Assembly (NCBI GenBank): GCA_001817055.1
Contig: MHHP01000021.1
Coordinates: 1 to 36,016 of the forward strand
Origin: Candidatus Andersenbacteria bacterium RIFCSPHIGHO2_02_FULL_45_11
GTDB lineage: Bacteria > Patescibacteriota > Andersenbacteria > UBA10190
Length of the DNA stretch: 36,016 bases
Direction of reading: 5' to 3'
The position numbers were made by a program, and so were the translations under genes. Positions 8,699 to 34,789 of this stretch are shown here, piece by piece. The notes beneath the pieces were generated by a model that made no database searches, had not been told where the DNA came from, and saw only the letters and a list, made by a program, of their open reading frames with translations. The first letter of the stretch is position 1. Each line of letters begins with the position of its first letter.

Positions 8699-8845
8699 CG
8701 TCGCGCTCCCTTCTCCTGTTTTGGGAGAAGGTTAGCTTTGCCTTTGTGCAAAGCGCGGATGAGGGGAAGTGAATAGCAGCTAACGCCCCTCACCCCTGCC
8801 TGCCGGCAGGCAGGCTAGCCCTCTCCCAGAACGGGAGAGGGGAAC
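8699..8845 (+). repeat. Composite GC-rich hairpin repeat, family B, copy 1 (fills the convergent HD/comFC spacer)
   Basis: Four modules are present: hairpin ccttctcc/ggagaagg (8709-8731); an extra hairpin gctttgc/gcaaagc (8735-8754); gagggg...cccctc; and a perfect 20-bp palindrome cctgcctgccggcaggcagg (8795-8814), followed by hairpin ccctctccc/gggagaggg (8819-8841). It is colinear with 23487-23596 and with the reverse complement of 14259-14378. Confidence 0.85.
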
Positions 8846-12793: not shown

Positions 12794-12889
12794 AGATTTC
12801 TCCCCCTCGTATGAGGGGGAGCGAGAGGGGGTGCGTTGCTTGCTACGTACTGACCCCACCTCGCCTCCCCTCATATGAGGGGAGGAAAT
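12794..12889 (+). repeat. GC-rich double-hairpin repeat, family A, copy 1 (intergenic, upstream of recX)
   Basis: tttctccccctcgtatgagggggagcgagagggggtgcg...ctacgt.ctgaccccacctcgcctcccctcatatgaggggaggaaat. It has the same architecture as the 95-bp copies at 24625-24719 and 25241-25335, and its 3' half is nearly identical to theirs. Confidence 0.85.
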
Positions 12890-12908
12890 ACGCTACAATC
12901 TATATATT

Positions 12909-13343: not shown

Positions 13344-14243
13344 TCGCTTGATTCGTTCTTCTAGCGGCGGATGAGTTGAAAGTAAGCCAGAAAAGGAACT
13401 CCCACCCCCTCTAACTCCCCCTCGGGCAGGGGGAGAACCAAACGGGTTTGCAATAAACAGGTGTGCCGTTGCATTGCTCGCAGTTTCTAGTGGGCTGCTA
13501 TGAGCGATTTTTTCTAATGCCCGCGCTAATCCTTCCGGGTAGCGTGTTAATAGTGCACCGGAAGAATCTGCCAAGTATTCCCGTTGGCGAGAAATCGCAA
13601 GTTGGATAATTTGCGCAATGATGGGGGATATAAGGAGGAGAACAATGCTGATAATTGCAATAAGTGCATTACTTTGATTGTTATCTCGACTTCTACGCCC
13701 ACCTCCAAAGAACATTGACCTGCCCACCAAGTCAGACAAAATCACAATGAACCCAACAAAGATTGCAACGAGTGTAGAAAATCGGATGTCATAATTTTTT
13801 ACATGAGATAGTTCGTGCGCAAGTACGCCTTCAAGCTCAGATTGCTCTAGTGCATGTAATAATCCTGTAGTTACTGCAATAGATGCATGCTCCGGGTCGC
13901 GCCCTGTTGCAAATGCGTTCATGGCAGGGGATTGGATAATATATATCTTTGGTGTTGGTACGCCTGCTGTAATTGCCAAGTTTTCAATAATGCGCGTAAG
14001 TTCCGGCGCTTCTTCTTTGGTAACCGCCTGTGCACGATTTGCAGCTAGTGCAATTTTATCTCCCGTATAGTAACCGATGAGCGAAGAAGGGATAGCGAGT
14101 ATAGCAGCGAGTATAGCGAGCGAAAAGTCTTGGTATCGAGAATACGAATACAGTGCGACAACACCGATTACGAATACAAGAACAATTACAACGAGAAAAA
14201 TTGATTTTCGCTTATTCGAAGAAATTTGTGAGTAGATGGTCAT
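13329..14243 (-). CDS. htpX: Zinc metalloprotease HtpX (M48 family)
   Basis: HELSHVKNYD (HExxH), four TM segments and a C-terminal LSTHPPLEERI motif. A repeat-derived insert (SPPARGGVRGGGS) sits just before STHPP. Confidence 0.9.
   Translation of the reverse strand: MTIYSQISSNKRKSIFLVVIVLVFVIGVVALYSYSRYQDFSLAILAAILAIPSSLIGYYTGDKIALAANRAQAVTKEEAPELTRIIENLAITAGVPTPKIYIIQSPAMNAFATGRDPEHASIAVTTGLLHALEQSELEGVLAHELSHVKNYDIRFSTLVAIFVGFIVILSDLVGRSMFFGGGRRSRDNNQSNALIAIISIVLLLISPIIAQIIQLAISRQREYLADSSGALLTRYPEGLARALEKIAHSSPLETASNATAHLFIANPFGSPPARGGVRGGGSSFSGLLSTHPPLEERIKRLREI
13399..13436 (-). repeat. GC-rich hairpin repeat, family C, copy inside htpX
   Basis: The reverse complement tctccccctgcccgagggggagTtAgagggggtgggag differs from the pheT copies at 2 positions in the core. 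It is in frame and is translated as SPPARGGVRGGG. Confidence 0.85.
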
Positions 14244-14258
14244 TGTTTATATAGTTAT

Positions 14259-14378
14259 CCCCTCGCCCCGGATGGGGAGAGGGTTAGCCTGCCTGCCGGC
14301 AGGGGTGAGGGGCCGTTAAGTCGACTAATTTCCCCTCATCCTCGCCTTCTCCCCGTCAGGGGAGAAGGGAGCGGCTAC
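14259..14378 (-). repeat. Composite GC-rich hairpin repeat, family B, copy 2 (lemA-htpX spacer, inverted orientation)
   Basis: The reverse complement reads gctcccttctcccctgacggggagaaggcgaggatgagggga...cccctcacccctgccggcaggcaggctaaccctctccccatccggggcgagggg, colinear with the copies at 8699 and 23487. Confidence 0.85.
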
Positions 14379-16686: not shown

Positions 16687-17279
16687 ACACCTCATTAAAC
16701 ACGCCGTACTTAGTACTCACCGGAGTAGTGGTGATTGCAATTGCGTTCCTTTTTACCGTACTGCAGCCATTGATGGATTCTATTAGTACGGCTAAAAGCA
16801 GCATTGAAAGCAATACTAGTTCACTTGCAGAAAAAGAAGCATTTTTACAATCGCTGGATGCAAAGATAAACCAATTGCGTTCTCAGCCAGATATTGAACG
16901 GCAGCTTGCGGCAGTGATTCCAGAAACAGAGCGCTCTCAAGATATTATCCGTGTTGTAGATCAGTACGCAAAAGAATCTGGCGTTACACTCACTGCAATT
17001 ACGAACAATGCTTCTCAAACAAAAGCGCGCGCAAACGCAAGTAAGGCAAGAGGGGATTTGAACTTGGTGCCGGAAGGTATTCAGATTATAACGTTGCAGC
17101 TAGGAGTTTCAGGTAACTACCAGCAGGTGCGCGCCTTTCTCGCAGGTCTTGAGAAGTCGCCCCGTATTGTTGATGTGGCTCGTATCACAATCAGCAAAGT
17201 CCCAGAGCAGCCAGAAGCTGTTACGGCATCTTTAGTAATCCAGCTGTACGCAAGAGCAGAAGAAACTCCAAGTTCATAA
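16677..17279 (+). CDS. pilO: PilO-like pilus assembly protein
   Basis: Single N-terminal TM helix, a coiled coil, then a ferredoxin-like C-terminal part. It overlaps pilN by 10 nt. Confidence 0.55.
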   Translation: MAINTSLNTPYLVLTGVVVIAIAFLFTVLQPLMDSISTAKSSIESNTSSLAEKEAFLQSLDAKINQLRSQPDIERQLAAVIPETERSQDIIRVVDQYAKESGVTLTAITNNASQTKARANASKARGDLNLVPEGIQIITLQLGVSGNYQQVRAFLAGLEKSPRIVDVARITISKVPEQPEAVTASLVIQLYARAEETPSS

Positions 17280-17590: not shown

Positions 17591-19330
17591 ATGGACAGTA
17601 ACGATCAACTTCTCGCAGTCTTGGTAGAGCGCGGGAGTGTAACGCAAGAGCAGCGTACTCATATAGAGGAGCGCATGAAGGCAGATGGCATATCTGCTAA
17701 GGCTGTTATATTGAGCGAGAAGATTATTTTATCGGAAGATCTTGCAGTCATTCAGGCCCAGTTGCTCGAGGTGCCATATGTAGATTTAACTAAGGTGCCG
17801 GTTCATGGCGAAGCGATGCACGATATATCGCGTAAAGCAGCTGCAACATATAGGTTTGTCGCTTTTGATAAAAAAGGAACAACGCTCCTGGTTGCAATGG
17901 AATCACCAGATGATTTTCAGGCTGCAGAAGCCGTAAAGTTTATCGCAAAGCGGAAAGGGTTAACTCCTCAAATATATTTGGCATCTTCAGATGCTATCGA
18001 CCAAGCGCTTGGTGGCGCAGGTGCAGTAGAGGCAGAAATTGGGGGAGCACTCAAAGAATTTTCTCAAGAACTCAAAGAAGCGGGTGAAGGGGAGAAGACA
18101 GGTGCAAGCATTGAGCGCATTGTAGAAGAAGCTCCTGTTACAAAAGTTGTTGCCGTGATGATACGCCACGCAATTGAAGGGCACTCGTCCGATATCCATA
18201 TTGAGCCTACTGAGAAAGAAGTGCGTATTCGGTATCGGATAGATGGAAAATTGCACACATCACTTGTGCTGCCGCTTAAAGTCCACGCAGCTATTATTTC
18301 TCGCATCAAGATTTTATCAAATCTCAAAATCGATGAATCTCGACTACCTCAAGATGGGCGCTTTTCTGCAACGGTGGATAGTCGCTCGTATGATTTCCGC
18401 GTTTCCACCATGCCAACAACATTCGGCGAAAAGGTGGCAATGCGTATTTTGGATAAATCGAGCGGAGCACCATCCTTTGAAGAGCTGGGCTTGCGAGGAA
18501 AGATGCAAGAAGTATTTGCGCAGTACTTGCATTCACCGTATGGCATCATCTTAATATCTGGCCCTACTGGCTCTGGGAAATCCACTACGCTTTTTACGTC
18601 GCTCTCGCTGCTCAATAGCCAGGAAGCGAATATCGTAACACTAGAAGACCCAGTAGAATACGAAATTATTGGTGTAAATCAAACTCAGGTGCAGCCAGAA
18701 ATTGGGCTTACGTTTGCCTCGGGCTTGCGGAGTATTCTGCGCCAAGATCCAGATATTATTATGGTGGGGGAAATTCGAGATAGAGATACCGCAGAACTTT
18801 CCGTGCATGCAGCATTAACCGGCCACCTTGTACTCTCTACCATTCATACCAACGGTGCAATTGGCGCAATTCCTCGTTTAATCGATATGGGGATTGATGG
18901 ATTCTTGTTATCTGCAAGTGTTCGCTTGCTTGCGGCACAGCGCCTTGTTCCGCGGCTGTGCCAGGCGTGCAAAGAAGAGGTGCCGATGGCAGACGCAATA
19001 CGAGAAAAGGTGCTCTCTGAACTCGCAACGCTTCCTGCCGACTATATGGTGGAAGAAAACCAGCGTACTCCAAGAGTATTCTATAAAAGCCCCGGGTGCC
19101 CGGAATGCAAAGAAATGGGTATTTTAGGGCGCTTGGCAATTTTTGAAGTAGTGCCCATTTCTCGTAAAATGCGTACGGCAATCAATGATTTTTCGGATTT
19201 TGACACGCTTTCTGCTATTGCAAAGAATGAGGGGATGGTCACGATGCGCCAAGATGGGCTCTTAAAAGCTCTTACCGGGGAAGTTCGATACGAAGATGTG
19301 ATGCGAGTGACTTCAGAAACTGAAGTTTAA
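17591..19330 (+). CDS. pilB: Type IV pilus assembly (extension) ATPase PilB / GspE family
   Basis: N-terminal GSPII_E_N-like domain, Walker A GPTGSGKSTT, Asp box, Walker B, His box, and a tetracysteine motif CQAC...CPEC. Confidence 0.9.
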   Translation: MDSNDQLLAVLVERGSVTQEQRTHIEERMKADGISAKAVILSEKIILSEDLAVIQAQLLEVPYVDLTKVPVHGEAMHDISRKAAATYRFVAFDKKGTTLLVAMESPDDFQAAEAVKFIAKRKGLTPQIYLASSDAIDQALGGAGAVEAEIGGALKEFSQELKEAGEGEKTGASIERIVEEAPVTKVVAVMIRHAIEGHSSDIHIEPTEKEVRIRYRIDGKLHTSLVLPLKVHAAIISRIKILSNLKIDESRLPQDGRFSATVDSRSYDFRVSTMPTTFGEKVAMRILDKSSGAPSFEELGLRGKMQEVFAQYLHSPYGIILISGPTGSGKSTTLFTSLSLLNSQEANIVTLEDPVEYEIIGVNQTQVQPEIGLTFASGLRSILRQDPDIIMVGEIRDRDTAELSVHAALTGHLVLSTIHTNGAIGAIPRLIDMGIDGFLLSASVRLLAAQRLVPRLCQACKEEVPMADAIREKVLSELATLPADYMVEENQRTPRVFYKSPGCPECKEMGILGRLAIFEVVPISRKMRTAINDFSDFDTLSAIAKNEGMVTMRQDGLLKALTGEVRYEDVMRVTSETEV

Positions 19331-22558: not shown

Positions 22559-22593
22559 CTAACCCCGTCTGCAGGCGGGGTTAGTTTGTTTTT
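22559..22593 (+). terminator. Rho-independent terminator after the major pilin gene
   Basis: ctaaccccgtc-tgca-ggcggggttag is followed by tttgttttt. Confidence 0.75.
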
Positions 22594-22613: not shown

Positions 22614-23462
22614 ATGCTTGAAACTGTATTTACTATATTCATTCTCTTCGCTCTCGGCGCTGCAATCGGCAGTTTTTTGCATGTAGTTGCAGAGCGATAT
22701 ATGGACGCTCTAACCTCCCCTAACCCCTCCTTCGTAAGGAGGGGAATGCGACGCGTTCTCTCCCCCTTACGAAGGGGGAGCTGGAGGGGGTTAGTCTTAG
22801 GGAGGTCGTACTGCCCACATTGCAAGAAGCAATTAACTGCCCGCGAACTCGTACCCATTTTTTCGTATATATTTCAAAAAGGACGATGCAGAGGATGTGG
22901 TGTGCGCATTCCAATGCACTACGCAGTACTGGAGGTGCTATCAGGAATTTTGTGTGTCGCATTCATTGCGCCTGCATTCGTAGCAGGTCAGCTATTAACT
23001 ATTCCCATATTGCTCTACATAGCAGCATGTATATTGATTATATTAATTCACATAGATGCGCGCAGTATGATGCTGCCTGATGTGTTTATTTTGATACTTG
23101 GAATTATTGCGCTCGTAATCGCCAGTATTTCCGGGCTATCTGGTGATAGTATGGCGTTTGGCGCGCTTGTGGGTGCGGGGGTGATCTATGCAATATGGCT
23201 CGCAACTGCAGGGCAGGGTATAGGATTTGGGGATGTAAAGCTGATGATCCCGCTCGGCATCTTATTCGGGTTTCAGGGCGTGGTAACGTTGCTTTTTATT
23301 GCCTTTCTAGTTGGAGGGCTTGTAGGGGTAGTGTTACTTGCAACTAACAGCGCAACACGGAAAACCGCAATCCCATTTGGGCCATTTTTAGCTGGCGCTG
23401 CCCTTGTGCTTATGGTATTTCCATCTATTTCTGATCGGTTTTTTGTGCTTTTAGGGGTATGA
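22614..23462 (+). CDS. pilD: Prepilin peptidase PilD (A24 family) carrying a repeat-derived insert of about 30 aa
   Basis: GSFLHVV, CPHC...RCRGC zinc motif, GFGDVKLM and PFGPFL active-site Asp motifs. TGCTATGAT (22599-22607) lies 6 nt before the ATG. Confidence 0.9.
   Translation: MLETVFTIFILFALGAAIGSFLHVVAERYMDALTSPNPSFVRRGMRRVLSPLRRGSWRGLVLGRSYCPHCKKQLTARELVPIFSYIFQKGRCRGCGVRIPMHYAVLEVLSGILCVAFIAPAFVAGQLLTIPILLYIAACILIILIHIDARSMMLPDVFILILGIIALVIASISGLSGDSMAFGALVGAGVIYAIWLATAGQGIGFGDVKLMIPLGILFGFQGVVTLLFIAFLVGGLVGVVLLATNSATRKTAIPFGPFLAGAALVLMVFPSISDRFFVLLGV
22709..22806 (+). repeat. MITE-like GC-rich element (family C variant) in frame inside pilD
   Basis: Two 9-bp-stem hairpins: cccctcctt-cgt-aaggagggg (22724-22744) and ctccccctt-acg-aagggggag (22760-22780). 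Imperfect inverted termini: acctcccctaa..cccctcc on the left, ggagggggtt..ttagggaggt on the right. The 3' half tctccccctt.cgaagggggagctggagggggt matches the pheT/htpX core. Confidence 0.8.
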
Positions 23463-23469
23463 TTAGGGT

Positions 23470-24168
23470 ATGAAGTTCGTGACATTCGTTCGCGCTCCCT
23501 TCTCCCCAGACGGGGAGAAGGCGAGGATGAGGGGGTATCGTCGCGCCCATTTTCCCCTCACCCCAACCCTCTCCCCGTCCGGGGCGAGGGGGGCTACGAT
23601 GGGCTTTTCCCTCGTCGAATCTCTCGTTATCATTTCCATTATCAGTATATTGGCTTCGTTGTCTTTGGTTGCCCTTCCGGCTGCGCGTGCGCACCAGCAG
23701 CTTATTTCGGATACTGAACTGATACAGTCGTTATTGCTAGATACAAAAGAGCGTGCATTAAATCAGGTACGCCCAGAAGGGTGCCTACGAGATGATTCAA
23801 ATCCAGAATCGGCAGATCGCGCTGCCTGTTCAGATGTAGGGATTATATTTGAAGGCGGTAAAGTTATGCAGTTCGCTAATATTGCAGGAGGAACAGAAGA
23901 AGATCCGGACTATGTCTATAGTGGTGACACAGAGCATCCTATTGTAGAGCACCAACTTCTTACGTCTGTAGTTGAGGAGGAAGAGGGTGGCGTAAGGCAA
24001 ATCCTGTTTCGGTCTGTTCCGCCATCCGTTGAGACGTATAAAGATGGGGCAGTTATGGAGCCGAAAGATACTGCACATATAACGCTCAAAGCGAGTAATG
24101 GAGAATTACGCAAGCTCGCGGTGAGTCAGTTTGGTACACTAGATATTGTTAATGATTATGCAAAATAA
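23470..24168 (+). CDS. Minor (pseudo)pilin with a prepilin N-terminal motif
   Basis: G|FSLVESLVIISIISILASL. The long form starts at ATG 23470, giving a 44-aa leader encoded almost wholly by repeat B3. An alternative ATG at 23599 gives MG|FSLVE, with a GAGGGGGG element from the repeat upstream. Confidence 0.7.
   Translation: MKFVTFVRAPFSPDGEKARMRGYRRAHFPLTPTLSPSGARGATMGFSLVESLVIISIISILASLSLVALPAARAHQQLISDTELIQSLLLDTKERALNQVRPEGCLRDDSNPESADRAACSDVGIIFEGGKVMQFANIAGGTEEDPDYVYSGDTEHPIVEHQLLTSVVEEEEGGVRQILFRSVPPSVETYKDGAVMEPKDTAHITLKASNGELRKLAVSQFGTLDIVNDYAK
23487..23596 (+). repeat. Composite GC-rich hairpin repeat, family B, copy 3 (5' end of a minor pilin gene)
   Basis: cgcgctcccttctccccagacggggagaaggcgaggatgaggggg...cccctcaccccaaccctctccccgtccggggcgagggg. 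It lacks the 20-bp palindrome module present in copies 1 and 2. Confidence 0.85.
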
Positions 24169-24601: not shown

Positions 24602-25230
24602 AAACGAAATCAAAGATTAACGTCGCGTATTTCTCCCCCTTGGATAAGGGGGAGCGCGAGGGGGTAGTAACGCTACGTCCGACCCCACCTCGCCTCCCCT
24701 CATATGAGGGGAGGAAATCTGCTGCGTTCACGCTGATCGAATTATTAATCGCCATGGGCATATTTGCCGTATTTATTACGATTATTACGGGGGTGTTTAC
24801 GAACTTTATCCAAGTTCAACGCCACGCCATTGCGCAAGGGCAATTAATTTCAGACATGCGGTCTGCAATGGAGGCGTTTATAAAAGAAGCGCGAACAGGC
24901 TACGGGTCTACGTATGCAGCTGAGGGGGACGCAGTTGTATTTGTGAATCAAAATAATGATTGTATTACGTTCCGAGTTATTGACGGTCAATTCAAGCGTG
25001 CAGATGCGGGGGAGCAAGATGTGTGTAGCGCTGAGGATTCCGATAGTAATCGTTTTAGCCCTATCACGAGTAAGGCGACAGAAATTATTGGCCTTGAGTT
25101 TAGCATTCCCGTTGACCGTGTTATCACAATCAAGCTCACGGCTACATCTAAAAAAGACGGCATTCCGCCAATTAGCATTCAAAATTCTATAACATCTCGC
25201 CAAATGGAACCATATGCGCAGAACCAATAA
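24598..25230 (+). CDS. Minor pilin with the family A repeat in its leader
   Basis: ATGA start/stop overlap with the upstream gene. The sequence reads MKTKSKINVA-[YFSPLDKGEREGVVTLRPTPPRLPSYEGRKS]-AAFTLIELLIAMGIF. No in-frame ATG, GTG or TTG lies between the repeat and the FTLIELL motif. Confidence 0.7.
   Translation: MKTKSKINVAYFSPLDKGEREGVVTLRPTPPRLPSYEGRKSAAFTLIELLIAMGIFAVFITIITGVFTNFIQVQRHAIAQGQLISDMRSAMEAFIKEARTGYGSTYAAEGDAVVFVNQNNDCITFRVIDGQFKRADAGEQDVCSAEDSDSNRFSPITSKATEIIGLEFSIPVDRVITIKLTATSKKDGIPPISIQNSITSRQMEPYAQNQ
24625..24719 (+). repeat. GC-rich double-hairpin repeat, family A, copy 2 (in frame, minor pilin leader)
   Basis: 95 bp, identical to 25241-25335. Hairpins ctccccctt-ggat-aagggggag and cctcccctca-ta-tgaggggagg. 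Confidence 0.9.
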
Positions 25231-25687
25231 AAAATATACAGCGTATTTCTCCCCCTTGGATAAGGGGGAGCGCGAGGGGGTAGTAACGCTACGTCCGACC
25301 CCACCTCGCCTCCCCTCATATGAGGGGAGGAAATCGGCTCAGCGTGGCTCAGTCGTCATTACTATTGTTTTATTTATGATTATCCTCATGACGTCTTCTG
25401 CCGTAGTGTTATCTGGCACACTCTCTCGCCACATTCGTGCATCACAAGACTATTTATCGTCAGAAAAAGCTTTTGCAGGGGCAAATACCGGCATGGAAGA
25501 AATACGATACAAGGTAAAGCAGGGTGATTATGAGCCTATTAAAGATGCTGAAATGGCATACGATGGCCAAGTAGTTACATATAACGCATCAGCAGAGAAC
25601 GATGGCGCCTGCATTATTTCATCTGGAACATTTAAAAATCTTGTACGTCGCGTGCAGTTCGGGGGAGAAGGGTGTAATCAACAATGA
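25214..25687 (+). CDS. PilX-like minor pilin / pilus assembly protein with the family A repeat in its N-terminus
   Basis: MRRTNKKYTA-[the same 31-aa repeat peptide]-AQRGSVVITIVLFMIILMTSSAVV, a QRGS + TM helix as in PilX N-terminal domains. It overlaps the upstream gene by 17 nt and ligA by 4 nt (ATGA). Confidence 0.6.
   Translation: MRRTNKKYTAYFSPLDKGEREGVVTLRPTPPRLPSYEGRKSAQRGSVVITIVLFMIILMTSSAVVLSGTLSRHIRASQDYLSSEKAFAGANTGMEEIRYKVKQGDYEPIKDAEMAYDGQVVTYNASAENDGACIISSGTFKNLVRRVQFGGEGCNQQ
25241..25335 (+). repeat. GC-rich double-hairpin repeat, family A, copy 3 (in frame)
   Basis: Identical over 95 bp to 24625-24719, and read in the same frame. Confidence 0.9.
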
Positions 25688-31866: not shown

Positions 31867-32932
31867 AGAGCTTGCAGAAGTTTCGGATGCATCTGCCTTA
31901 GAGGCATGGCGCGTTTTATATATCGGGCGAAAGGGAAAACTCCCTGAGCTGCTTCGTGGTGTTAAGGATTTAGGCGATGAAGAAAAGAGAGTGATTGGTA
32001 AAGCGGCGAATATATTAAAGAGAACACTTGAAGAAGCATATTCTGTAAAACAAGAGTCGTTTATCGCATCCGCACCTAATAAGCTAATGAAAGCCCTGCC
32101 TGCCGGCAGGCAGGTACAAGCTAACGAAGCTAGCGTAGGCCATTTGCATCCGATCACACTTACGATTGAACGTGTGCAAAATATTTTTGCGGCTATGGGC
32201 TTCATTATCGCCGATGGCCCGGAAGTGGAAGAGGCAAGATATAACTTTGATGCACTAAATATTCCGTCAGATCATCCTGCTCGTGGAGAAGGGGATACGT
32301 TTATGATTGATCCTAAGAGTGTGAGTGGGGAACAGGATGTAGTGCTGCGTACGCAAACATCGCCGATGCAGATCCGATCCGTGGAAACGATGCGCCTCAC
32401 CCCGCCATTTTATGTAATTGCTCCAGGCCGAGTATATCTAAGGGAAAAAGTAGATGCAACACACGAATCAACGTTTTATCAATTTGAGGGCTTAGGAATA
32501 GGGGAGGATATAACAATTGCAGATTTTAAGGGGGTTATTGCTGCATTCTTTTCTACATTCTTTCAAAAAGACGTAACCGTGCGTCTACGTCCTTCATACT
32601 TTCCGTTTGTCGAGCCTGGATTTGAAGTTGATATGAGTTGCGTTTTTTGTGCTCAAAAAGGGTGCAGGGTTTGTAAGTACACAGGTTGGATTGAAGTAAT
32701 GGGTGCTGGCATGGTACATCCGAACGTACTCAAAAATATGAATATTGATCCAACGAAGTATCAGGGCTTCGCCTTCGGTGGCGCTATTGATCGGCTTACA
32801 ATGATCCGACATGGTATTAACGATATTAGGATGTTTTGGAGTGGAGATATTAGGTTTTTACGACAGTTCTCGAACTGTCATTCCGGCCCCCGAGCCGGAA
32901 TCCACGTGGATGCCGGATCAAGTCCGGCATGA
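31817..32932 (+). CDS. pheS: Phenylalanine--tRNA ligase alpha subunit, with a repeat-derived C-terminal extension
   Basis: HPARGEGDTF, RTQTSPMQIR, FRPSYFPFVEPG and GAGMVHPNVL class II motifs. The conserved end ..GDIRFLRQF is followed by 20 extra codons (SNCHSGPRAGIHVDAGSSPA) and a stop from a palindromic element. An alternative ATG lies at 31826. Confidence 0.9.
   Translation: MTDMEQQLEDLQKQANKELAEVSDASALEAWRVLYIGRKGKLPELLRGVKDLGDEEKRVIGKAANILKRTLEEAYSVKQESFIASAPNKLMKALPAGRQVQANEASVGHLHPITLTIERVQNIFAAMGFIIADGPEVEEARYNFDALNIPSDHPARGEGDTFMIDPKSVSGEQDVVLRTQTSPMQIRSVETMRLTPPFYVIAPGRVYLREKVDATHESTFYQFEGLGIGEDITIADFKGVIAAFFSTFFQKDVTVRLRPSYFPFVEPGFEVDMSCVFCAQKGCRVCKYTGWIEVMGAGMVHPNVLKNMNIDPTKYQGFAFGGAIDRLTMIRHGINDIRMFWSGDIRFLRQFSNCHSGPRAGIHVDAGSSPA
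32095..32114. repeat. Perfect 20-bp palindrome cctgcctgccggcaggcagg inside pheS
   Basis: Identical to 8795-8814 (a module of repeat B1). A 16-bp version lies at 14288-14303. Here it is translated as (A)LPAGRQV. Confidence 0.85.
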
Positions 32933-32944: not shown

Positions 32945-34789
32945 ATGAAATTCTCGTACCAAAAAATTAAAAAAATAATTCCAAGCCTCACACTATCTCC
33001 AAAAGAGTTGGCAGAGCTTCTTACCATGCATGCGTTTGAAACTGTTGTTGATCGCGAGTACGTAATAGATCCAAGCATGACGGTTGTAAAAATTCTCAAG
33101 CTCGATCCTCATCCAAACGCAGACCGTCTTCGTCTTGCAACAGTAACCGACGGAACGAACGAAATCCGAGTTGTATGTGGTGCGCTAAACATTGAAGTGG
33201 GGCAGATTGTCCCGTACGCACCTCCGGGAGCACGTGTGTATGATGAGCACGGTGAATTATTTACCTTGAAAGAAGCAGTGATTCGAGGAGAGACAAGCCC
33301 CGGAATGTTAAATTCTGTCCGAGAACTAGGGATATCAGACGATCATGGCGGAATCCTGATTCTTCCCGAAGATACCCTCATTGGGTCAAAGCTTGCTCTG
33401 CATATTCCAAGCGATACGATATTTGACGCTGATGTGCTACCTGATCGCGCGCACGATGTGCAATCAGAAGAAGATATTGCGCACGAAATCGCAGCACTTC
33501 TTGGGCTTGCAAAATCATCTGACCGAAAGATGGGTACGCACACAATTGCTTTTAATCCAGATAGTCCAAGTAAAATTGCGGGGGTAAACATTTCTCATGA
33601 AGAAGTGCGGGATATTTTGGAACGATTAGGGTTTATAATCTCTCCCCCTGCCCGAGGGGGAGCTGGAGGGGGTGGGAGTGGCGACGTGTGGTCTGTGACC
33701 GTCCCGTCTGCGCGCCCTGATGTGCTGGGCGAGCATAATTTGGTTGATGAAGTTGTTCGCGTGCACGGACTTGATGCAATTCCACCGTCTACAATGGATT
33801 TCTCAAAGCCATTACCCGTATCACCATCAGTATATTGGATTGGACTCATTCGTCGCACACTTGCAGAATCAGGATTTACAGAAACGTATAGCTATTCGTT
33901 TGAAGATGAACGATTTGCGAAATTGGTGAACACAGAAATTCATCCGCACGTTGAGCTTTCAAACCCTATGGCACCGGAGCTGAAGAATCTCAGGTACTCG
34001 ATGCTGCCAGGGCTAATTTCTGCAATGGTGAAAAGTCGAGATGACATTCATCGGACAAAGAAAAATCAGGAGAGGGCCCTGTTTGAAATAGGGCGTGTAT
34101 ATCATCGGGGCGATGAGGGTGTAGTGCCTGGTATTATTGAGCGGCCTGTTATCGCAGGCATCGCGGTAGGGGATGAGGTAACACTACAAAATATCGTTGA
34201 TCGCATTCGAGAATTGTTTCAGATAGAAGCGCTCACTGTTATTCCTGCAGAAAAGCCATTTGCGAAATACAGTCTTTTGAAATACGCGGATGAATTTTTC
34301 GGTATTGGATATATATTCAGCAATGAACTCCTGAAAAAGATGAAATACAGAATGCCGGTCATTGCGTTTGAAATAAGTTTCAACGCGCTCATGAAGCATG
34401 CGCCAGATGTGGAAATTCCTGTGCGGACACTGGACGAGATTCGAAATACACTAGAAACTCCCGCGCAATTCGTCGAACTGCCAAAATATCCAAGCGTATT
34501 TCGAGATATATCAATGCTCGTACGTCCGGAAGTAACCGTCGAGCAAGTCCAAGAAATTATTGAGCGTATTGGAAAAGGGTTAGTCGTAGACGTGGATCTC
34601 TTTGATGAATTTACGCCTCTCCCCCTGCCCGAGGGGGAGCTGGAGGGGGTGGGAGTGGCGCGAAAATCTCTGGCGTTTCATATTGAATATAGATCTTCAG
34701 AAAAAACCCTTACCGATACAGAAATAGCAGAATTGCACTCAAAAATCGAACACGCCCTCAAGAAAGAATGTAACGCCGAAATACGGTAA
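32945..34789 (+). CDS. pheT: Phenylalanine--tRNA ligase beta subunit (short form, B3/B4 editing domain missing, two repeat inserts)
   Basis: tRNA-binding (EMAP-like) domain DPHPNADRLRL..VVCGA, B5 domain (VTVPSARPDV..LVDEVVRVHGLD), B6/7, and a C-terminal FDX-ACB domain (KYPSVFRDIS...KSLAFHIEY). It is 614 aa, against about 795 aa in E. coli. Confidence 0.9.
   Translation: MKFSYQKIKKIIPSLTLSPKELAELLTMHAFETVVDREYVIDPSMTVVKILKLDPHPNADRLRLATVTDGTNEIRVVCGALNIEVGQIVPYAPPGARVYDEHGELFTLKEAVIRGETSPGMLNSVRELGISDDHGGILILPEDTLIGSKLALHIPSDTIFDADVLPDRAHDVQSEEDIAHEIAALLGLAKSSDRKMGTHTIAFNPDSPSKIAGVNISHEEVRDILERLGFIISPPARGGAGGGGSGDVWSVTVPSARPDVLGEHNLVDEVVRVHGLDAIPPSTMDFSKPLPVSPSVYWIGLIRRTLAESGFTETYSYSFEDERFAKLVNTEIHPHVELSNPMAPELKNLRYSMLPGLISAMVKSRDDIHRTKKNQERALFEIGRVYHRGDEGVVPGIIERPVIAGIAVGDEVTLQNIVDRIRELFQIEALTVIPAEKPFAKYSLLKYADEFFGIGYIFSNELLKKMKYRMPVIAFEISFNALMKHAPDVEIPVRTLDEIRNTLETPAQFVELPKYPSVFRDISMLVRPEVTVEQVQEIIERIGKGLVVDVDLFDEFTPLPLPEGELEGVGVARKSLAFHIEYRSSEKTLTDTEIAELHSKIEHALKKECNAEIR
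33641..33683 (+). repeat. GC-rich hairpin repeat, family C, copy 1 in pheT
   Basis: tctccccctgcccgagggggagctggagggggtgggagtggcg, with hairpin ctccccct-gccc-gagggggag. It is translated as SPPARGGAGGGGSG. Confidence 0.9.
34618..34660 (+). repeat. GC-rich hairpin repeat, family C, copy 2 in pheT
   Basis: 43 bp identical to 33641-33683, but read in a different frame as LPLPEGELEGVGVA. Confidence 0.9.

Follow-up and report, generated by a model that had tools for sequence, protein, structure and literature searches.

We studied an insertion in pilD, a prepilin peptidase gene on the 36,016-nt contig MHHP01000021.1 of Candidatus Andersenbacteria bacterium RIFCSPHIGHO2_02_FULL_45_11 (GCA_001817055.1). 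This whole stretch is referred to as the window, and positions are those of the window unless another locus is named. The pilD gene (22614-23462, forward strand) codes for a 282-aa enzyme of the A24 family; an element of ~94 nt (about 22705-22798, forward strand) lies in it in frame and encodes most of residues 31-62. We consider, with a probability of roughly three in four, that the insert is a selfish palindromic doublet of hairpin units residing in a permissive loop of PilD, and that a DUF559 nuclease is its likely partner. A first-pass annotation had proposed a repeated palindromic element with inverted arms, in frame in the cytoplasmic loop between the first transmembrane helix (TM1) and the CxxC motif; both the empty sites in orthologues and the related copies elsewhere agree with that proposal.

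The insertion was confirmed at the protein and DNA levels. Among 105 aligned PilD homologues, 84 had 9-12 residues (mode 11) between the invariant R28 and S65, versus 36 residues in the window PilD. The extra residues aligned as DALTSPNPSFVRRGMRRVLSPLRRGSWRGLVL (residues 31-62), between TM1 and the CxxC motif, where the first-pass annotation had placed an extra in-frame segment, and homologues from unrelated taxa contained no conserved segment of equal length there. Three orthologues (L002, L003 and L005; 78-84% identity) had an empty site at the DNA level, in which TATATGGC is joined directly to AGGGGAGAATCCGTTTTTGGG, encoding ERYM-AGE(N/S)PF(L/V)GN-S-x-CPHC. The filled site of the window reads TATATGG-ACGCTCTAACC...GGGGGTTAGTC-TTAGGG. 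The net gain relative to the empty sites is 75 nt, or 25 codons; the gain had been put at 30 codons, and the element had been placed at 22709-22806, where it does lie, with boundaries that we revised as given above. The identical PilD protein is present on nine contigs from two sources (JGI and ENA), and the insert is therefore no assembly accident. A relative, L001 (GCA_034680565.1), also carries it. A same-strain NCBI assembly (GCA_001817035.1, contig MHHO01000003.1) differed by 3 nt over a 13-kb overlap; its locus begins at window position 22945, so the insert lies outside this overlap.

The host gene has all the features of a type IV prepilin peptidase (A24, PilD): both domains, the Cys motif, the two catalytic Asp residues and a pilus-operon context. 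Pfam profiles A24_N_bact (1.5e-24) and Peptidase_A24 (3.6e-14) matched its product, and the N-terminal domain occupied residues 14-118, i.e. 105 residues versus 80 profile positions. D148, D207, C67, C70 and C95 were invariant among the 105 homologues, and C92 was conserved in at least 90% of them. The type IV pilus operon (17.6-25.7 kb) contains pilB, a response regulator gene, pilT, pilC, the major pilin gene, pilD and four small pilin-type genes, and is followed by ligA.

The insert consists of two inverted units, each a poly-C/poly-G hairpin with a G-rich tail, arranged with the hairpins inward. From left to right on the forward strand, it comprises an outer tail CTAACCTCCCCTAA (22710-22723), reverse-complementary to the G-rich tail type TTAGGGGAGGTTAG that also flanks a DUF559 gene in locus L043; a hairpin CCCCTCCTT-CGT-AAGGAGGGG (22724-22744); a 15-nt central spacer AATGCGACGCGTTCT (22745-22759); a second hairpin CTCCCCCTT-ACG-AAGGGGGAG (22760-22780); and an outer tail CTGGAGGGGGTTAG (22781-22794), which is part of an exact pattern found in at least 117 GTDB contigs. 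Both hairpins, each with a 9-bp stem, had been reported by the first-pass annotation and are real, and the imperfect inverted ends it described correspond to arms of 36 nt each (22710-22745 and 22759-22794) that are 78% complementary. The whole insert was predicted to fold as one long hairpin, with energies of -56 kcal/mol as RNA (z -3.5) and -29 kcal/mol as DNA (z -4.6), and none of 200 shuffled sequences folded as well. Two of its six reading frames are free of stop codons, the sense frame in use being one of them. No Rfam family matched the insert at gathering thresholds, and permissive E-values gave only spurious matches to hairpins resembling miRNA precursors. An intein, an intron and a programmed bypass were ruled out: the length of the insert is insufficient, splicing motifs are absent and the frame runs on uninterrupted. 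The CTAAC...GTTAG ends were compared by eye with the R''/R' consensus of attC sites; the fit was approximate only, and poly-C/G stems are unlike attC.

The AlphaFold model of PilD was confident (mean predicted local distance difference test score (pLDDT) 91.4; predicted template modelling score 0.88), the insert being the one part with low confidence. The catalytic Asp and Cys residues of the enzyme are intact. The ten-residue blocks over residues 31-70 had pLDDT values of 76, 54, 57 and 82, so that residues 41-60 scored 54-57, versus 86-98 elsewhere in the protein. Established topology work on TcpJ and PilD places the TM1-to-CxxC loop and the active site on the cytoplasmic side. The low confidence of the insert, the conserved Asp and Cys residues and the cytoplasmic position of the loop therefore led us to regard the insert as a flexible loop in the cytoplasm that the enzyme tolerates. 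It would add 25 residues rich in Pro, Gly, Arg and Ser and leave the aspartyl protease core unaffected; the fold, at least, accommodates the insert. Foldseek found no significant match of the model in the PDB; FlaK (3s0x) ranked 19th at E 3.4 and was left unused.

These features suggest how the insert may have arisen and persisted. A non-coding palindromic repeat would have landed in the TM1-to-CxxC cytoplasmic loop and become coding in a pilD that was still functional. Its persistence, we propose, is owed to a net gain divisible by three, to a sense frame that is among the only two without stops, and to a loop that tolerates the added residues. It would be transcribed with pilD and translated as a flexible loop, probably with little effect on the enzyme. 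Predicted peptides spanning the junctions include ...YMDALTSPNPSFVR and GSWRGLVLGR.

The pilD insert belongs to a family with abundant related nucleotide copies. At least 10 were found in the window, about seven of them in frame in coding sequence (pilD, htpX, pheT twice, and three pilin-type N-termini or leaders), and the pattern TCCCC-N5-14-GGGGA occurred 11 times in the window versus 0.13 expected. The basic module is a unit of 35-45 nt in which a poly-C/poly-G hairpin is followed by a G-rich tail repeating the 3' stem arm. Units are found solo (pheT twice and htpX), as hairpins-inward doublets (pilD and L046) and as hairpins-outward doublets (12796, 23493, 24625 and 25241), in both orientations, within genes and between genes. 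The 3' half of the pilD element is 75% identical to the pheT copies and matches the htpX copy (13398-13436) in reverse complement, which bears out the earlier remark that this half is common to the pheT and htpX copies.

The two solo units of pheT, both on the forward strand, are 44 nt long and 100% identical, and they are read in two different frames of one essential gene. The first (33640-33683) lies in the B5 domain, is read as SPPARGGAGGGGSG and falls at a 9-residue gap in PDB 6p8t; the second (34617-34660) lies in the FDX-ACB domain, is read as LPLPEGELEGVGVA and falls at an 8-residue gap in the same structure. All six frames of the pheT unit are free of stops. The solo unit in the C-terminal part of htpX, an M48 peptidase gene (13396-13440, reverse strand), encodes SPPARGGVRGGGS. 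Locus L046 (MHHS01000008), from another Andersenbacteria genome, contains a near-identical doublet whose arms are those of the pilD copy and whose spacer differs; it is in frame and falls in the N-terminal tail of an unrelated membrane protein. The two frames in pheT, the occurrence of both orientations and the L046 doublet indicated that the family is a DNA element, not a protein motif.

Other copies are intergenic. A full hairpins-outward element lies upstream of recX (12796-12894), with arms as in the DUF559 element of L001 and no gene between them. A composite element between htpX and lemA (14259-14373) includes a nested CCTGCCTGCCGGCAGG mini-palindrome, and a similar intergenic composite (8750-8841) has none of its six frames open. 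Intergenic copies as a group have no or one stop-free frame, and intragenic copies use a stop-free frame; this is what a selection filter on insertions in random phase would leave. In our reading, the same family has settled in other permissive coding segments of the compact genome: htpX, pheT and the pilin leaders that PilD cleaves.

The pilin leaders are indeed a second site of insertion in the pilus operon. The first-pass annotation had assigned related repeats to three pilin genes beside pilD, and we found them there, all on the forward strand. A full hairpins-outward element (23493-23594) occupies the leader of the minor pilin that follows pilD (MKFV...GATMG/FSLVESL, the slash marking the cleavage site), and another (24625-24723) occupies the leader of an FTLIELL pilin (MKTKSKINVAYFSPLDKGE...RKSAA/FTLIELL). 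A 99% identical copy of the latter (25241-25339) lies in the N-terminus of ORF 25214-25687. Without an element, the minor-pilin leader reads MSNQSG/FSLVESL (L002) or MNTG/FSLVESL (L004). Four different palindromic inserts were found in this leader, in the window, L001, L003 and L205, all of them upstream of the G/F cleavage site. The FTLIELL pilin showed the same pattern, with the empty leader MRNTLQKQG/FTLIELL in L004 and L205. Because PilD cuts off the peptide segments that hold these copies, hardly any coding location could be more harmless. The -1 residue is Ala, not Gly, in both FTLIELL-pilin alleles with an insert.

The PilD loop is also hit repeatedly. About 14 of the 105 homologues had inserts of 23-43 residues between TM1 and CxxC, and these were of several kinds. 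P0062 and P0073 carried the unit family of the window, independently inserted and reading ...PPDKGG(L/Q)GGV; P0006, P0012 and P0078 carried a different palindrome (AACGCTTGGGGTT...AACCCCAAGCGTT); the insert of P0007 was non-palindromic; and further inserts were known at the protein level in P0030, P0043 and P0089-P0091. Insertion into this loop is thus recurrent. Another palindrome family (CGCGCCTCCTCAACGCTTGGGGTT...AACCCCAAGCGTTTTCCCGGCG) was seen at the same pilD position in L004 (about 858-915) and L204 (about 555-620), two non-sister lineages with 58% PilD identity, and its arms were far more alike than the flanking gene.

The unit is spread over many phyla. By our own calculation, an exact pattern of 25 specified bases would be expected less than once by chance; it was found in at least 117 contigs of GTDB species representatives. 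The hosts among the matches listed were Gallionellaceae, other Proteobacteria, Bacteroidota, Planctomycetota, Poribacteria, Omnitrophota, Nitrospiraceae, cyanobacteria, Ignavibacteria and many Patescibacteria, and 29 of the 104 listed copies with enough flank (28%) lay inside long open frames. Pfam-confirmed host genes with the exact unit in frame were purL of a Prevotella (L053, 2808-2839), uvrA (L118, 1138-1168), ftsK of a Nomurabacteria genome (L030, 726-757), two U32 peptidase genes (L038 and L027), an MmeI-type methyltransferase gene (L006) and a gene for a GH18 protein (L019). The habit of residing in frame thus belongs to the family as a whole and not just to the window genome. Carriage by phages was ruled out as the cause of this spread by the near absence of the unit from viral contigs (1 in 2.9 million).

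A candidate partner gene lies between the arms in several genomes. In L001, a 120-aa DUF559 gene (197-559) sits beside htpX exactly between inverted hairpin-plus-tail arms (162-197 and 575-613), which are nearly identical to the hairpins-outward elements of the window, with one mismatch in the left arm. In L043, which comes from a gammaproteobacterial metagenome-assembled genome, the arms around the DUF559 gene are the two unit variants that make up the pilD copy, with a different loop and in the opposite arrangement. Every DUF559 gene in the unit-selected loci (five of five) was directly flanked by units. Fourteen open reading frames (ORFs) had units on both sides; four were DUF559 genes, and the rest were unrelated housekeeping genes or had no Pfam match.

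We examined the association in an independent sample of 80 metagenomic DUF559 loci, which were selected by protein only and are the best-scoring subset of one DUF559 subfamily. In 68 of them such hairpins lay at most 200 nt from the gene, in 41 on both sides; the arrangement seen in L001 and L043 (inverted arms with tails toward the gene) recurs there. Hairpin density was 4.97 per kb near the DUF559 gene versus 0.20 per kb beyond 300 nt, a 25-fold enrichment; the tails faced the gene in 56 of 66 scorable arms. Arm similarity tracked DUF559 protein similarity (rho 0.32), a value reached by none of 500 permutations. These results showed that DUF559 genes and the arms are associated. We found no earlier description of DUF559 genes with repeats, or of palindromic inserts in Patescibacteria, in the literature outside subscription journals. 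After the DUF559 gene, L001 has a hairpins-inward doublet with a nested insertion (575-690). Orthology of the L001 DUF559 element and the window element at 12796-12894 was rejected, because recX stands at the window position; our claim extends to the identity of the arms and not to synteny.

Although DUF559 domains are very common, to our knowledge no activity or function is known for them. The gene between the arms encodes a PD-(D/E)XK nuclease of 110-130 aa, and the DUF559 profile matched PDB 3hrl (5e-30) and the homing endonuclease I-Bth0305I (3r3p, 8e-5). The product of the arm-flanked gene shares the fold of these EDxHD/Vsr-like enzymes, and the gene is small and free-standing in the manner of selfish nuclease genes. 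I-Bth0305I differs in that it resides in a group I intron and has a single conserved gene as its target, whereas the DUF559 gene described here lies between dispersed multi-copy palindromic arms.

We propose that the units behave like repetitive extragenic palindromic (REP) sequences and their inverted doublets (REPINs), and not like MITEs (miniature transposable elements with inverted repeats) of the DDE type, since they lack target-site duplications and occur solo and in both doublet arrangements. Their likeliest partner would be the DUF559 nuclease, a Vsr-like relative of I-Bth0305I whose gene regularly stands between two arms, and this enzyme may mobilise the units. Copying could proceed by repair of a nuclease-initiated break, by gene conversion or by hairpin-directed strand transfer. 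More tentatively, and with odds that we place somewhat below even, the units could form part of a so far undescribed cross-phylum class of mobile element resembling a REPtron, in which a DUF559 nuclease instead of a tyrosine transposase recognises and spreads hairpin-plus-tail arms. Such a system would explain gene-less arms in frame in essential genes from Patescibacteria to Bacteroidota and Proteobacteria; its insertion would be at least partly site-directed, hence the same pilD position in non-sister lineages.

An ordinary REP/REPIN family moved by a Y1 (HUH) transposase of the RAYT/TIRYT type encoded elsewhere in the genome, with DUF559 as a neighbour or a secondary invader, is an unlikely alternative, with about one chance in eight. 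Unit size, solo and inverted-doublet organisation and the missing target-site duplication are all REP-like. The units are imperfect palindromes of 20-45 nt present as singlets and inverted doublets, as in REPs and REPINs, and their single and doubly arranged dimeric forms also recall bacterial interspersed mosaic elements (BIMEs). Intragenic REPs with GTAG/CGTC, and RAYT-like genes flanked by terminal inverted repeats with a GGGGWSAS motif, have been described (PMC3733652), and some window units (GGGGAGAGGG at 14274) fit GGGGWSAS. In that system, too, a small nuclease-type gene is flanked by repeats, intragenic dimers encode 20-30 residues, and uvrA is a known host (PMC3733652), as it is of a unit of the window family (L118). 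Against this stands the gene content: no Y1 HUH transposase was found among the unit-flanked ORFs in 0.87 Mb of unit-selected loci, DUF559 was the sole recurrent cargo (4 of the 14 ORFs), and the flanked gene codes for a PD-(D/E)XK nuclease, not an HUH Y1 transposase. A consistent GTAG/CGTC head is absent; GTAG follows the tail in some copies (24661) and not in the pilD, pheT and htpX copies. Unlike extragenic REPs, about seven of ten window copies lie in ORFs, as do 29 of the 104 cross-phylum copies. The arms also co-diverge with the DUF559 protein, and the exact unit recurs in many phyla, whereas RAYT-associated REPs are lineage- and species-specific.

Several observations weigh against our preferred reading, a selfish doublet with DUF559 as partner. 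Neither the 36-kb window nor a further 8.8 kb of its contig yielded a DUF559 gene. In the pilD copy the hairpins point inward, opposite to the DUF559 arrangement, and the copying of such doublets and of solo units is left unexplained. The restricted sampling of the 80 loci counts here as well, and the association could be the reverse, with DUF559 genes homing into pre-existing palindromes. GenBank starts PilD at Met101, downstream of the insert, and translation of the insert is presumed. When the window is compared with L001, the copies inside genes have changed less than the coding DNA around them, contrary to the expectation for neutral junk: the left half of the pilD element is identical at 44 of 46 positions versus 76-78% for flanking coding sequence, and the htpX unit at 45 of 45 versus 82% for the rest of htpX. 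Finally, in a three-gene tree of moderate support, L002, which has no insert and the ancestral AGENPF loop, fell inside the clade of the window and L001, and these two were sisters in 0.4% of bootstraps. They nevertheless share the insert at identical junctions, which random insertion plus selection does not easily explain.

A single ancestral insertion common to the window and L001 is unsupported by this tree. Taken together, conservation and phylogeny hint that the site received copies more than once or that master copies homogenised it; a single old insertion that then drifted is less likely. The htpX-lemA spacer carries different elements in the window (14259-14373) and in L001 (1617-1693); thus intergenic copies turn over, and in-gene copies at pilD and htpX stay nearly identical.

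The same conservation is what exaptation would predict. The insert might form a hairpin in the mRNA and so adjust how pilD is translated or how stable its message is, or it might act as a peptide that modulates the peptidase or the N-methyltransferase region. The right pilD hairpin of L001 is CTTCTCC/GGAGAAG, with two fully compensated stem changes, and the predicted hairpin is very stable (-56 kcal/mol). We nevertheless regard this as improbable, at about the level of the RAYT alternative: the closest orthologues work without the insert, unrelated inserts occupy the same loop in other lineages, and the peptide is predicted to be disordered. The conservation could equally come from recent or repeated copying from master copies, and elements at other shared positions, such as the htpX-lemA spacer, have been replaced.

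A classical MITE, i.e. an internally deleted derivative of an insertion sequence (IS) with a DDE transposase that is moved in trans, is very improbable. MITEs such as Correia, ERIC and BOX do not code for proteins, are small, have inverted termini, exist in many copies and sometimes form in-frame ORF fusions (PMC10969869), and the element resembles them in its ~94 nt, its 36-nt imperfect inverted repeats (78% complementary), its lack of an ORF of its own and its copy number in the window. No target-site duplication was found at the pilD, L046, 12796, 24625 and 25241 copies, the pilD comparison being blurred because the empty sites diverge by ~20%; the 14 ORFs with units on either side (eight of them Pfam-scanned) included no transposase, and no IS with matching ends was found in the loci examined. 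The element therefore falls outside the strict definition of a MITE. Solo half-units are common (pheT, htpX) and the organisation is modular, with arms flanking a 110-130-aa PD-(D/E)XK nuclease gene, not a transposase gene. Of the earlier label "MITE-like", the small multi-copy repeat with inverted arms stands; the searches for terminal repeats and target-site duplications that it called for gave related copies and no duplication. The element should rather be called a REP/RPE-like hairpin-unit doublet.

The second part of this label refers to Rickettsia palindromic elements (RPEs), palindromic repeats of ~100 nt that lie in frame in unrelated housekeeping genes (Ogata et al., 2000, as summarised in PMC10969869). 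They, too, sit in a small genome and add a peptide that is compatible with the fold, as we found for in-frame palindromes in fold-compatible positions of pilD, htpX and pheT (twice). The window family differs in its host phylum (Patescibacteria, and not that of Rickettsia), and its poly-C/G composition makes homology with RPEs unlikely. It is built of 35-45-nt hairpin-plus-tail units that also occur solo and across many phyla, and its arms flank a DUF559 nuclease gene. We know of no partner gene for RPEs.

That the segment is non-mobile, whether the loop grew in this lineage by slippage or duplication, the assembly is at fault or pilD is a pseudogene in decay, is scarcely credible: the 182-aa GenBank product that starts past the insert would fit it, whereas the same DNA occurs at many other loci and genomes, the ORF is intact across the insert though only two of six frames are open, the TM1 residues upstream of the insert are conserved, and the nine contigs and L001 agree.

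The in-frame palindrome phenomenon belongs to a known kind (RPEs and intragenic REPs), and the pilD copy alone is moderately interesting. Its interest is raised by the recurrence at the PilD loop and the prepilin leaders, the cross-phylum identity of the unit and the strong association with DUF559 nuclease genes. In-frame selfish palindromes have so far been treated mainly as a Rickettsia curiosity, together with scattered intragenic REPs. Here they occur in a Patescibacteria genome with almost no intergenic space, which points to where selfish DNA can hide in very small genomes. They hit the type IV pilus machinery, which these episymbionts rely on, and even the leader peptides removed by PilD. 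DUF559 gains a testable role and becomes a candidate for the agent that moves REP-like repeats without a RAYT.

Inserts of this kind appear to mislead gene callers and would inflate apparent protein novelty in metagenomes. The GenBank call for the same strain (L207, GCA_001817035.1) gives a PilD of 182 aa from Met101, and the ENA call gives the full 282 aa. Gene calls in L207 stand at 1-518 and 655-1224, the pilin after pilD beginning past the element and having 189 aa rather than 232 aa. Upstream of pilD, a strong intrinsic terminator-like hairpin with a T-run (22559-22584) lies between the major pilin gene and pilD and is kept in L001, L002, L004 and L005; expression of pilD therefore requires either read-through or a separate promoter. 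A promoter scan around the insert found no sigma-70-like site for pilD.

Other small palindromes accompany the units. A second, tiny palindrome (CCCTGCCTGCCGGCAGGCAGG) at 32094-32114 lies in frame in the inter-domain linker of pheS and encodes ALPAGRQ. It is also nested in hairpin units at 8794-8814, 14287-14307 and about 1400-1450 of L099, in the last case within the arm loops on the two sides of a DUF559 gene. A palindromic repeat of a third type (TTCCGGCCCCCGAGCCGGAA / ATGCCGGATCAAGTCCGGCAT) at 32881-32930, at the 3' end of pheS, encodes the last ~18 residues of PheS (CHSGPRAGIHVDAGSSPA) and looks like a repeat-derived C-terminal extension. Past the right end of the window, on the same contig, further units occur in L207 at 16905-16926, within the second of two tandem thymidylate-kinase genes, and at 18235-18321, where a doublet lies between adjacent dCTP-deaminase/dUTPase ORFs (140 and 190 aa) that are possibly one gene split by the element.

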